Source: an uncultured Verrucomicrobiae bacterium (lineage in GTDB: Bacteria > Verrucomicrobiota > Verrucomicrobiia > Chthoniobacterales > Terrimicrobiaceae). From it: a stretch of 64,000 nucleotides of DNA. Under the pieces are notes generated by a model. It was not told the origin of the DNA and ran no database searches. It was given only the letters and a program-made list of their open reading frames with translations. Positions 22,252-28,094 of this stretch are shown here, piece by piece. The stretch lies in NCBI GenBank assembly GCA_963706955.1, contig CAVPOC010000002.1, positions 128,001 through 192,000 on the forward strand, given 5' to 3'. Made by a program: the position numbers and the translations under genes. How positions within the stretch are numbered: the first letter of the stretch is position 1; every line of letters starts with the position of its first letter.

Positions 22252-22342
22252 AGCGCCAACGGCGCGACCTCATTTCAGCCTGGGGCAACGCCCCAGGAAT
22301 GACACACACCGCCCCAAAACTAGCGCTGAAAGTGCGACTCAT
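22252..22342 (+). repeat. AGCGCCAACGGCGC / CCTGGGGCAACGCCCCAGG / AGCGCTGAA three-hairpin repeat
   Basis: Same three-module order recurs at 40500-40591 and inverted at 40207-40300. Confidence 0.75.
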
Positions 22343-23715: not shown

Positions 23716-23747
23716 GCCGAACAAGGCGCTGAGCTACGACGTTCGGA
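23716..23747 (+). other. Collapsed attC-like site (internal deletion)
   Basis: GCCGAAC-AAGGCGCTG/AGCTACGAC-GTTCGGA: both R boxes are kept and the arms are fused through GCTG. Confidence 0.55.
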
Positions 23748-23754
23748 ATAGAAT

Positions 23755-24008
23755 ATGTCCTGGAACTCGAAAGAACCTCGCTGGCAAGGCGCCAACAAAC
23801 CGAGAATAGCGCCCACCCAATTCGTAATCAACAGCTCGGAGTTTGATCGGATTCCCGACGGGCAAGGGACGATGAACTCGATTTTCCACAATGCGATGAC
23901 TGCGGCGTCTCTCGTGGGAATTTGCATCTGCTTGGATGTGACCTAAAGCACTGCCCTCGATGCGGCGGACAGGCAATCTCATGCGACTGCTTTTACGAAG
24001 ATGATTAG
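23755..24008 (+). CDS. Small Cys-rich putative zinc-binding cassette protein (~84 aa), one frameshift near 23865
   Basis: MSWNSKEPRW...FDRIP continues in another frame as DDELDFPQCDDCGVSRGNLHLLGCDLKHCPRCGGQAISCDCFYEDD*; bounded by attC-like sites. Confidence 0.7.
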
Positions 24009-24018
24009 AAACAGGAAG

Positions 24019-24087
24019 TCCAAACCAAGCGGTGCATCGAATCCCTGTCCCTCCCGGACTTGGGATCGCTGACCGCCAACGTTAGGC
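24019..24087 (+). other. Integron attC site
   Basis: TCCAAAC-CAA-GCGGTGCATCGAATCCC ... GGGATCGCTGACCGC-CAAC-GTTAGGC: R and L boxes with the extrahelical G, directly after a stop codon and before an ATG. Confidence 0.8.
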
Positions 24088-24099
24088 CGCTTCGCACGC

Positions 24100-24425
24100 A
24101 TGTCACAGCAGAGCGACTTGGCAGACGGTTTCTACGCCCGACTGAGCACCTGCCCGGTCGCTTCAGCTCAGCTTGTGCGGGAGTTGCGCAGTCGGTGGGG
24201 TGCGGGGCACGGTGTCGGTTAGTGCATGGTTTTGTTCGCGAGGTAGCCACGTGCCTCTTGCACCACGATGACGTTGAGGTGGGCGACGTGAGAGGCGGCC
24301 AGTTCGTTTCTTGGTCGTTGCCAGCGTGGGATGCAGACGAGAGGATTGACGCGGAGTTGATGGCGATGGACAGATTTCTCGACGACGAGAGTCAGTATGT
24401 ATTCCGAAAGACACCAGCGGCCTAA
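24100..24425 (+). CDS. Hypothetical cassette protein (~108 aa), one frameshift near 24220
   Basis: ATG 12 nt after GTTAGGC (MSQQSDLADGFYARL...); continues in the 24060 ORF frame (VHGFVREVATCLL...) and stops at the TAA inside the GCCTAAC of the next attC. Confidence 0.65.
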
Positions 24426-24497
24426 CCATGCGCTGCAGCGAACCCGCCTTCGCGCTCCGGTTGCAATCCACGCGTCTCATGGGCCGGGTCGCTGAGC
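24420..24497 (+). other. attC site lacking its right R' box
   Basis: GCCTAAC-CAT-GCGCTGCAGCGAACCCGCC ... GGCCGGGTCGCTGAGC; the expected GTTRRRY is absent and an IR element follows. Confidence 0.75.
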
Positions 24498-24520
24498 CTA
24501 CCTCTGGACAACTGACAACT

Positions 24521-24677
24521 AGGGGTCAGTGTGCATAAAGGTATTACTAACAGATAGGGTTGAGGGCAGAGATTGGTCGGGCAGGGATTGAAGGCGGCGG
24601 GGCTAGATCGGCAGGATTCGAGTGGGAAGCTAATGGCTTCAAATGAGATGTGTATGTGATTATGCACACTGACCCCT
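24521..24677. mobile_element. 157-bp non-coding element with perfect 18-bp terminal inverted repeats
   Basis: AGGGGTCAGTGTGCATAA (24521-24538) and TTATGCACACTGACCCCT (24660-24677). Confidence 0.75.
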
Positions 24678-24735
24678 GACTGGCGCCTGACTGGCGCGAG
24701 AACACCGGCCGTGAGGAGGAGGTAGCAGACATTTC

Positions 24736-26005: not shown

Positions 26006-26336
26006 TAGTCCAAAGACGTTTCCCTTCGCCGGATTAGACAGGTCAAGGCTGGCTAGTTAAGCTCAACAGAGCAAAGGTTCGACCCGATTAGAGATCTAAA
26101 GATATCGTTCTCCGAGGATAGCGGAGAAGTGGTATCAGCGCTACATAGAGCGCCTGCATGAAGCCACGTTCGGCTTACAAAGAGTGAGGAAGGCTCCTCA
26201 CCATGCTCTGCGGCGAAACCGCTCCGGCCAATTCCTAGACTTAGGATCATAGCCGTCCGTGAAGACCGCCTTTATGCTCGGCTGCCACGATCTGGAGCCG
26301 ACGTCCTGCGCGACGAAAAATGGGGTCAGACCTTGA

Positions 26337-27861
26337 CGGGCTGTTGCCCAAATCAGCCCATTCTGGCGTGAAAAATGCTTAGGGATGGAGTTAGCTATGA
26401 TGGGCCATTGGCAGAAGCAGACCGAGCTGTGGGTGGAACCGATAAACTTAGGCAGACGAATTCCGCCAGATCATTTGCTAAGAAAGATCAATCAGGTACT
26501 CGACCTCGGGTTCGTGCGCCGCGAAGTGACCGGCTTTTACGGGAGCAATGGCCATGTGTCGGTCGACCCGGTGATCATCATCAAGCTGATGCTCCTGCTC
26601 TTTCTCGACGATGTGCGCAGCGAGCGCGAGCTGATGCGGATTGTGCCGCTGCGCTTGGATTATCTGTGGTTCTTAGGCTACGGGCTCGAGGATGAGATCC
26701 CCACTCACAGTGTATTGAGCAAAGCGCGCAAGCGTTGGGGAGCCCAAGTCTTTGAGCGGCTCTTTACCCGGAGCGTCGAGCAGTGTGTTGCTGCGGGCCT
26801 GGTCGATGGCAGCAAGCTGTATCTTGATGCCTCTCTGGTCGCGGCGAATGCGTCCCGCAACTCAGTCATCGAGGTGGTGGTTCGGCGCGAGGTGAGTAAG
26901 CTTGAGGAGCAGGAGCAAGAAGAAGACCAGGACTCCGGCAGCAGCGGGGGCTCGGTCAATCGAAAGCTGCGCAGCACCACCGACCCTGACTCGACGGTGG
27001 TCCGGCACCAGCAGGGCAGGCCGACTCCCTCCTATAAGAATCATCGGGCTCTTGACGACAAGGCGGGAGTGGTGACGGCGATCACGACAACGACGGGAGC
27101 TGTCGATGAAGCCAGCGAGTTAATCGAGCTCATTGAAAGACACGAGCGGGTCACCGCTGCCAAGACCAAGGTGGCGGTAGCCGACAGCCGCTACGGCAAT
27201 ACGGCTAACTTAATTGCTTTGGCACAGCGTGAGATTCGGGCGCATGTGGCCGATCTGCGCAGCAAACTGCGCAATGCGCGCAGCCAAGGAATCTATCCGC
27301 CAGAACACTTTGTCTATCAGCCCGAAGCGGACTACTACACGTGCCCGGCGGGAGAGATCCTTTACCGGCACCACTTTGTTGCCAAGCGCGGCTACTATGA
27401 ATATCGGCCGAAGCGGGGAACCTGCGCGAGCTGCAGGCTGCGACAGTTCTGCACGCGTGATAAGAACGGTCGCACCCTCAAGCGCTACGCGGGCCAGGAG
27501 CTTCTGGATAAAGCGCGCCAGCAATCCCATTCCCCGCAAGCGCGCTCTGACCGCATGCGCCGGCAATGGTTTCAAGAGCGCAACTTCGCCGAGGCCGCCG
27601 TGCAGCACGGCTTTAAGCGAGCCCGCTGGCGCGGACTCTGGCGACAAAGCATTCAGGATTACCTCATCGCGGCCATTCAAAACCTGAGGATCATCGCCAA
27701 AAACCACAAGCATCTACTCCTCGCGCTTACTCGGATACTGGCTAAGGCCAAACTGCTTCCAATCTTTTTCGCTGCCGACCATTGATCGCGGCATCGCTTA
27801 ACCACTCAGAGTCACCTGCCTAAATTTTGCCACAAGCTCATCCTTTTTGAGCAACAGCCCG
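26337..27861 (+). mobile_element. IS1182-family insertion sequence, complete
   Basis: IRs CGGGCTGTTGCCCAAA / TTTGAGCAACAGCCCG; 4-bp target duplication TTGA (26333-26336 and 27862-27865). Confidence 0.9.
26385..27785 (+). CDS. IS1182-family DDE transposase
   Basis: IPPDHLLRKI, SERELM, PTHSVLSKARKR, DASLVAANAS, STTDPD, ADSRYG, YTCPAG, CxxCxxRxxC and HGFKRARWRG. Confidence 0.92.
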   Translation: MELAMMGHWQKQTELWVEPINLGRRIPPDHLLRKINQVLDLGFVRREVTGFYGSNGHVSVDPVIIIKLMLLLFLDDVRSERELMRIVPLRLDYLWFLGYGLEDEIPTHSVLSKARKRWGAQVFERLFTRSVEQCVAAGLVDGSKLYLDASLVAANASRNSVIEVVVRREVSKLEEQEQEEDQDSGSSGGSVNRKLRSTTDPDSTVVRHQQGRPTPSYKNHRALDDKAGVVTAITTTTGAVDEASELIELIERHERVTAAKTKVAVADSRYGNTANLIALAQREIRAHVADLRSKLRNARSQGIYPPEHFVYQPEADYYTCPAGEILYRHHFVAKRGYYEYRPKRGTCASCRLRQFCTRDKNGRTLKRYAGQELLDKARQQSHSPQARSDRMRRQWFQERNFAEAAVQHGFKRARWRGLWRQSIQDYLIAAIQNLRIIAKNHKHLLLALTRILAKAKLLPIFFAADH

Positions 27862-28094
27862 TTGATTTATGACCTCGATCTCCTTCTGCAGAATGTTGAA
27901 AGCGGGTCGAGACGGGCATCCGCCCGGTTGCCGCCGAACAGCTTGAACGAGCCAGAAAGAAGATATAAGGGCTACACCGCCCGTTGCCAAGACAGCCGCG
28001 TTGAGGCATCCGCTGCAGCCGACCCTTCCACGGTTTCATGCCGTTGTTTCTCGATTTTCCCGAGAAATCCACTACCTGCTTCGGGCGAGATATC

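Follow-up and report, generated by a model that had tools for sequence, protein, structure and literature searches.

The window analysed here, a stretch of 64,000 nucleotides (G000:C2:128001-192000) from a 4.16-Mb assembly that is 92.5% complete and whose nearest relatives by protein are Verrucomicrobiota, holds next to a truncated attC site a short element bounded by inverted repeats, with a different tandem duplication at each end. What kind of element is this, how did its two ends acquire their duplications, and does its position have anything to do with the cassette array in which it lies?

A short element with a different duplication at each end

A check of the sequence confirmed the basic description of the locus: a perfect 18-nt inverted repeat at 24521-24538 and 24660-24677, two tandem duplications, and no target-site duplication (TSD) common to both ends. 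The element exists as an inverted-repeat-bounded unit, but the 157 bp given by the initial annotation had to be corrected. As the family repeat begins at GGGG, the element spans 24522-24676 and measures 155 nt, with a perfect 17-nt repeat of the TIRtron type (GGGGTCAG at both ends, in agreement with the consensus GGGGWSAS), and the A outside the GGGG is a flank position with a bias (89 of 134 family ends have A at -1). On the left, GACAACT is found twice at 24507-24520 and stops one base short of the repeat, and on the right CCTGACTGGCG is found twice at 24675-24696, with a unit composed of 9 nt of flank and the outermost 2 nt of the repeat. Since exact tandem repeats of these periods are rare in the 4.16 Mb (231 of period 7, 6 of period 11), the presence of both of these stutters at the element ends goes far beyond chance. 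The element and its borders comprise the following parts:

24505..24521 (+): 17-nt segment outside the left repeat, not of attC origin; holds GACAACT twice and ends in the clade-typical ACT-purine motif; present in X5, X1 and X6 contigs
24522..24554 (+): TIRtron left end (17-nt perfect repeat and adjoining sequence); parent positions 1-34
24567..24617 (+): internal fragment of the TIRYT gene, codons ~260-277; parent positions 840-890; tblastn 94% over 18 aa
24618..24676 (+): TIRtron right end (last gene codons and right repeat); parent positions 1084-1144; the same end occurs at other loci in G016 and G004
24675..24696 (+): 11-nt tandem stutter of the right end; differs between strains, being present in an X5 contig and absent in an X6 contig

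The Rfam scan gave no match at the element. The octamer GGGGTCAG is not over-represented in the genome (96 copies versus 69-124 for nine control 8-mers), and clustering was seen only for PWM-defined TIR ends (40 matches versus 9 in the shuffled genome), five of which carry stutters, two of these being the ends of the 155-nt element. Elsewhere in the window, a sub-threshold Rfam match to the Acido-Lenti-1 RNA occurs at 22252-22297 on the minus strand (27 bits, gathering 37, E 0.009).

Descent from a TIRtron

With the exact 17-nt repeat as query, 72 metagenome loci were obtained, among them L156, a complete element of 1144 bp on a metagenome contig with an ORF of 350 aa. The 155-nt element aligns with L156 in three collinear blocks (94% over 34 nt, 48/51 nt and 82% over 61 columns), and similarly with L122. 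Judged from these alignments it is a gene-less, three-piece internal deletion of a 1.14-kb TIRtron, that is, a derivative and not a full TIRtron, in which only fragments of the TIRYT gene are left. The core, first described as non-coding, corresponds to deleted transposase coding sequence (the 48/51-nt match to L156), and its purine content (80/121) is close to that of the parent ORF (640/1053). Between its repeats the parent carries a RAYT-like Y1 gene (HUH and catalytic Tyr) which is absent from the 155-nt element, and the early suspicion that an HUH/RAYT-type enzyme goes with these ends was borne out, as the proposed search for a Y1/RAYT gene between such ends succeeded. Further deletion derivatives of the same parent type, with other breakpoints, were L105 (385 bp) and L138 (155 bp). 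A homologous right end was also seen at other loci, with a different stutter in G016 and without any in G004. Alignments of the core with the L075 and L078 TIRtrons were no better than shuffles, and it was the closer parent L156 that resolved it.

Short perfect terminal repeats beginning with GGGG resemble Tn3-type ends, a likeness that would suit a DDE-type MITE with its target duplication erased by later adjacent deletions. Such an origin is scarcely credible for an element with a core of TIRYT coding sequence and a parent encoding a Y1/HUH enzyme, in a family with complete members that likewise lack a TSD (0 of 51 with at least 3 nt; none at this locus). DDE ancestry is refuted, and only mobilisation in trans by a DDE enzyme could revive the MITE reading. 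As MITEs do, the element is short, non-coding and bounded by terminal inverted repeats, and was made by internal deletion; unlike them, it has no TSD, its parent enzyme is HUH/Y1 and not DDE, and the whole element is single-copy in the genome.

The parent enzyme and its class

The L156 protein matches the Y1_Tnp domain and shows HYH at 60-62 and YIHLNP at 121-126 (YxxxNP), two motifs invariant in 30 relatives and in line with the HUH and Y---NP features of TnpA-Y1 class 2 / subclass 2.1. The predicted fold is TnpA-REP-like with an added helical domain (best match TnpA-REP 4ER8, E 2e-7), and a search of solved structures by sequence gave weak matches only (E 0.03-0.12). The C-terminal domain is confidently predicted as all-helical, with no HTH among the fold matches listed. 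The flanks of the element are inverted ends, where no GTAG-footed REP hairpins of the kind that define REPtrons were found, and the NF047646 score was 62-65 bits, below the cut-off of 80.

One intact long Y1 gene occurs in the genome (C8:542117-543174), with GGGTCAG repeats around it and a 14-nt stutter at one end. This TIRYT is 44.6% identical to the L156 protein, and belongs to another clade and another repeat subtype. The closest relative of the L156 enzyme in this genome is a decayed fragment, and no intact TIRYT of the matching repeat subtype was found in the 92.5%-complete assembly. Long Y1 homologues are present in 81 of 102 genomes of the bacterial family. The intact TIRYT element has a second copy of its 5' end at a distance of 0.93 kb (C8:543100-543225 and C8:544026-544152, 93%), with one membrane-protein-like ORF in between, and further decayed or deleted TIRtrons keep the 5' start of the gene (C8:148283-148629, C10:271513-271661, C8:484900-485285).

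The initial annotation regarded the locus as the best candidate for an undescribed system, a label that does not hold: the TIRYT/TIRtron class, with its GGGGWSAS end consensus, was already named in 2013 (Di Nocera, De Gregorio & Rocco, PMC3733652). The main text of that work presents a RAYT-like tyrosine transposase gene between GGGGWSAS terminal inverted repeats, as in L156, and reports solo, dimeric and clustered TIRs in the genome, with TIR dimers counted in its Figure 9. These dimers may include elements like the 155-nt one, which differs from the TIRtron of the same text as a gene-less, three-piece deletion derivative. The terms 'target site' and 'duplication' are absent from that main text, so the missing TSD, the stutters and the flank motif are not there. 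In the available text of Quentin et al. (2018, PMC6006769), the class is equated with TnpA-Y1 subclass 2.1, which corresponds to the group 1 RAYT in that of Bertels et al. (2017, PMC5581495), and it is counted as the second-largest group of Y1 HUH proteins, in 14.9% of strains (PMC6006769). Traits shared with this subclass, as described in those texts, are a long Y1 protein with HUH, Y---NP and a helical C-terminal extension, the lack of REPs, and GGGG[AT][CG]A[CG] repeats; as a difference, Pfam Bac_DnaA_C, HTH_23 and HTH_28 had no match in the 30 relatives studied here. The available texts of PMC6006769 and PMC5581495 hold no data on mobility or mechanism, and the words 'tandem', 'MITE' and 'non-autonomous' do not occur in that of PMC6006769. 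The accessible part of a preprint (bioRxiv 10.1101/2020.03.09.984088) ties subclass 2.1 to lanthipeptide gene clusters, without such repeats. Judged from titles and the beginnings of abstracts, nothing was found in the literature on end stutters or miniature TIRtrons.

End duplications across the family

Are the duplications of this locus a peculiarity or a trait of the family? From 152 fetched loci we obtained 153 gene-anchored ends, 134 of them after dereplication, mostly from one bacterial family and all from loci with a tblastn match and at least 60 nt of flank. Tandem repeats touching the junction occurred at 23 of the 134 ends, compared with 18 of 3000 random positions, 13 of 2680 shuffled flanks and 1 of 637 other GGGG 8-mers, which gives a control rate of ~0.6%. 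A position-free scan placed 19 of 131 repeat ends at 0 to +9, with 3-4 per neighbouring bin and no more than 2 in any bin past -20/+20; the signal forms a narrow peak at the outer junction and is not seen within the repeat. The units consist of 4-14 nt of flank and 1-16 nt of repeat, the right stutter of the 155-nt element (9+2) being a typical one, and their junction dinucleotide is not fixed. Microhomology was 0 nt in 11 of the 23 stutters and 1 nt in another 6, whereas 4 showed at least 3 nt of microhomology or three copies. Among 51 complete elements, the exact TSD was 0 nt in 41, 1 nt in 2 and 2 nt in 8, which equals the result for mismatched pairs, and none reached 3 nt. Altogether, the combination first noticed at one locus, independent end duplications without a TSD, is a real signature of the family, and the proposed search for an enrichment of end-adjacent duplications came out positive. 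Long arrays of stutters were also observed, with several partial repeats in a row in L031 (G160:C12) and at least four units of 10-11 nt in L025 (G267:C2).

The flanks outside the repeat are not random either. GGGTC lies within 32 nt outside 27 of the 134 ends, compared with 6 for the 28 nt farther away and 3 for the reverse orientation, and sharing at -1 to -5 amounts to 57% between the ends of one element versus 38% between different elements. ACT at -4 to -2 was found at 36 of 48 ends in four repeat subtypes versus 0 of 59 in five others, a table that covers the subtypes with five or more members (27 ends of smaller ones are omitted). In the tree of the enzymes found in the present analysis, the ACT-bearing subtypes fall in one clade (support 89/89), so that their agreement amounts to one evolutionary event. 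Similarity to uninterrupted homologues stops 3-24 nt before the repeat, with the exception of two matches to the opposite end of the same element, one linking two loci that both bear the repeat, and two of 81-83% to a repeated motif, which were set aside. Flanks of 6-10 nt are common to 35 of 111 pairs of related ends, pairs that are not independent, with 3 among the 35 not being TIR ends; such flanks are compatible with carry-over and with target preference alike, between which they cannot separate.

The locus in other samples

Thirteen of 24 sequencing runs contain at least half of the sampled words, and the best one is possibly the sample of origin. The comparison used Logan contigs, not reads, of four runs, each from a different study. 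An X5 contig spans 24398-24595, including the attC break and the left stutter, with 0 differences, and the left stutter was also present in X1 and X6 contigs. The right stutter was found in an X5 contig, with 19 nt past it. A 1427-nt contig of X6, from a related strain, carries the element at the identical position with the 11-mer present once, an allele seen on one contig with a depth of 5.5. Strains that share the insertion differ in the right stutter, which was therefore gained or lost after the element arrived. In an X5 contig, 24679 is preceded by 12 different letters, which begin like the repeat end and are possibly a third allele, and X8 gave no coverage over the element, which carries no weight either way. 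That the duplications are assembly artefacts might be argued from the contig without the right one and from the use of contigs instead of raw reads, but we hold this to be extremely improbable, given the left stutter in contigs of runs from three studies, the right one in one contig, and the recurrence of the pattern in independent genomes. None of 60 relatives showed an empty site at this locus; loose ends of X8 and X1 with an intact R' box at 24497 were considered as such and rejected, since they are other attC copies, not anchored here.

A proposed mechanism and its rival

Stutters without a TSD throughout the family fit the nick-and-extend processing proposed at the outset, which in this part remains plausible, with a chemistry drawn by analogy with TnpA-REP. 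We consider it probable that each stutter arose in situ and separately from the one at the other end, through a TIRYT that nicks the DNA and re-joins it after short copying; the stutters likely point to the sites of this nicking and re-joining. In this scheme, the TIRYT would cut ~4-14 nt outside the repeat, on the strand reading GGGGTCAG 5'-3', and its tyrosine would hold the 5' end as a 5'-phosphotyrosine. A host polymerase would extend the free 3'-OH through the flank and on into the repeat, over a distance that varies between 1-16 nt (+2 at the right end of the 155-nt element, whereas the left extension would end one short of the repeat), and the new 3'-OH would attack the phosphotyrosine, leaving flank and partial repeat present twice. 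The two ends, on opposite strands, would be joined independently, and for this reason the proposed route would leave no shared duplication, ragged fillers of 3-24 nt and a loss of adjacent DNA.

The chemistry was borrowed from TnpA-REP because no TIRYT biochemistry was found in the published literature, nor any mechanism in print for TIRYT/subclass 2.1. The same nick-extend-rejoin chemistry is modelled for TnpA-REP in Fig. 7B of Ton-Hoang et al. (2012, PMC3333891), where the part available describes a 5'-phosphotyrosine, strand transfer and a comparable route to tandem copies in the BIME amplification model; the route proposed here differs in having no sequence-fixed second cut. HUH nicking near a bound repeat, at a variable distance from it, is a further feature of REPtrons (PMC3333891; Corneloup et al. 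2021, PMC8266576, in the portions at hand), as TnpA-REP cuts at a variable distance from its repeat (PMC8266576). For the TIRYT this likeness is a proposed one. In contrast with REPtrons, TIRtron ends have neither a GTAG-footed hairpin nor a fixed C|T junction, their repeats form the two inverted ends of an element, and deletion derivatives of this entire element occur frequently. Several facts count against nick-extend-rejoin: no junction dinucleotide is fixed, unlike the C|T of TnpA-REP; the strict test detects no stutter at 111 of the 134 ends; no intact TIRYT of the same clade and repeat subtype was found in the assembly; the X6 allele is on one contig; and the fit of the flank motif equals one evolutionary event. 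With these in mind, we infer this route for TIRYT at somewhat better than even confidence.

The same ancestry is also compatible with stutters made by host replication or repair, through slippage or template switching triggered by the G-run, the folded repeat or a bound protein that blocks the way, the TIRYT taking no catalytic part. The variable junction dinucleotide, the 4 of 23 stutters with longer microhomology or three copies, and a right stutter that differs between strains, although no cognate enzyme was found in the assembly, would all agree with it. Other 8-mers starting with GGGG are nearly free of stutters (1/637), 17 of the 23 stutters have 0-1 nt of microhomology, and the signal is confined to a narrow zone at the outer junction, with none inside the repeat, three observations that run counter to slippage and make both this origin and its suggested triggers rather unlikely to us.

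The broken attC site and the cassette array

An attC-like site and a truncated attC precede the element:

24019..24087 (+): upstream attC-like site with an imperfect R'' box and R' box GTTAGGC; PWM half-site score 20.2; bottom-strand hairpin z -2.2
24420..24504 (+): attC without R' box; R'', L'', L' (24491-24497) and the 7-nt spacer are kept; 95% to the intact attC of relatives up to L'

The second site lacks the GTTRRRY R' box, and its R'' box is unpaired in the bottom-strand fold. The element does not sit on the R' box itself, as was first thought, since 17 nt of other sequence (24505-24521) lie between the attC break and the repeat; a loss of 2 nt from a GTTRRRY box would yield identical letters at 24505. 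A collapsed attC-like site was seen by eye at 23725-23765, and the left half of an attC stands alone at 26195-26235; the array is therefore broadly decayed. No integron integrase above cut-off was found in the assembly.

The initial annotation raised the possibility of a route for cutting, capping or moving cassette arrays without an integrase; in its strong form, the elements would target attC sites, for example as single-stranded hairpins. At this locus the break indeed falls at the R' box, and the absence of an integrase above cut-off would be in keeping with the idea. Near a second junction (C8:485285, an end of the same subtype), the element joins 22 nt from a 62-nt piece, the two other copies of which run into an attC R'' box, a hint to be read knowing that breakpoints are mappable only in repeated DNA, with a bias towards cassettes. 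The other mapped junctions are in ordinary genes or in an IS110 copy. Within the genome, 4 of 9 attC half-sites (score >=19) lie within 3 kb of a TIR end, a zone covering 3% of the genome, although 2 of the 4 are this locus. Across the family the association fades: none of the 134 gene-anchored ends has a half-site within 500 nt outside it, 83 loci (219 kb) contain 0 half-sites, and among 82 other loci, at the same threshold of 19, one has a half-site nearby, the homologous end of G016, which is 142 nt from the repeat and not at the junction. Low scores of the half-site PWM contain much noise (50 matches versus 23 shuffled), and two regex scans for attC were too strict. By eye, no convincing TIR end was seen among the 33 distinct intact sites that 8 of 16 attC-array loci of relatives contained, a weak survey inasmuch as intact sites are selected.

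IS1111-attC elements and group IIC-attC introns are attC-targeting elements, which the 155-nt element resembles in sitting at an attC of a cassette array. It differs from them in that its family has no attC association (0 of 134 ends, where most copies of an attC-targeting element would be expected at a fixed position in attC) and in that the R' box was lost, not interrupted at a fixed position. A dedicated route for arrays is not supported by these counts, and targeting of attC sites seems to us quite improbable. Most likely, the R' box was lost as a by-product of the insertion, or of a later end-anchored deletion, in a cassette-rich island. A weak link with attC is kept open by the co-location in variable islands and by the second junction at an attC box.

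A second TIR end and insertion sequences

A second hairpin noted at 26322 has no unusual fold (z -0.28) and turned out to be a different TIR end, split by an insertion sequence that we take to be of the IS1182 type from its domain make-up:

26322..26336 (+): outer part of the second TIR end, which is of another kind and interrupted by IS1182; one TTGA copy at 26333-26336; its continuation aligns with G000 C8:156816
26337..27861 (+): IS1182-type element, DUF772 and DDE transposase, ORF 26385-27785; 4-nt TTGA target duplication
27862..27925 (+): inner continuation of the second TIR end; local alignment to C8:156827-156891

Another copy of this IS1182-type element (C5:135457-137213) is also inserted at TTGA inside a TIR end, with TTGA duplicated, and the element possibly prefers TIRtron ends. 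An element that presumably belongs to the IS110 family, as suggested by its protein motifs, was found inside GGGGTCAG repeats, directly after AG, at C5:174808-~176350, C10:263239, C10:278538 and L041:3170; the frameshifted copy in C5 splits the TIR, with AG on both sides. In an X6 contig anchored at this locus, the left repeat (window position 24529) runs into the left end of the IS110-family element, and an X1 contig has the right end of that element joined to the same repeat type. It is possible that RNA-guided IS110 elements target TIRtron ends. Finally, ~10 copies of a TIR-bounded miniature family of ~200 bp, 70-94% alike, occur in two islands, C8:150558-167483 and C10:262541-279665, and at one end of this family the outer G is the exact terminus of a 2093-bp repeat.

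Significance

The 155-nt element is a real gene-less variant of a known and biochemically unstudied class, marked by a stutter scar that is recurrent and, as far as we found, unpublished. To the description of this class the present analysis adds the link between parent and derivative, the difference between strains, the counts of TSDs and flank motifs, and a negative attC test. A bolder reading, an undescribed mode in which double-stranded elements with inverted ends are moved by an HUH enzyme, each end being nicked and joined independently at a clade-specific motif a few bases outside the repeat, and in which folded single-stranded DNA, attC hairpins for instance, attracts the junctions, appears unlikely to us; if true, TIRYT elements would cut and reshuffle cassette arrays devoid of integrase, leaving no TSD, ragged fillers and stutters. 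As a single locus, the element is a decayed by-product. Together with the near-identical parent enzyme, the locus supplies a natural minimal substrate of 155 nt and testable predictions for the family, namely nicks 4-14 nt outside the repeat, an ACT-purine flank for the clade, no target duplication, and stutters that would arise after insertion.
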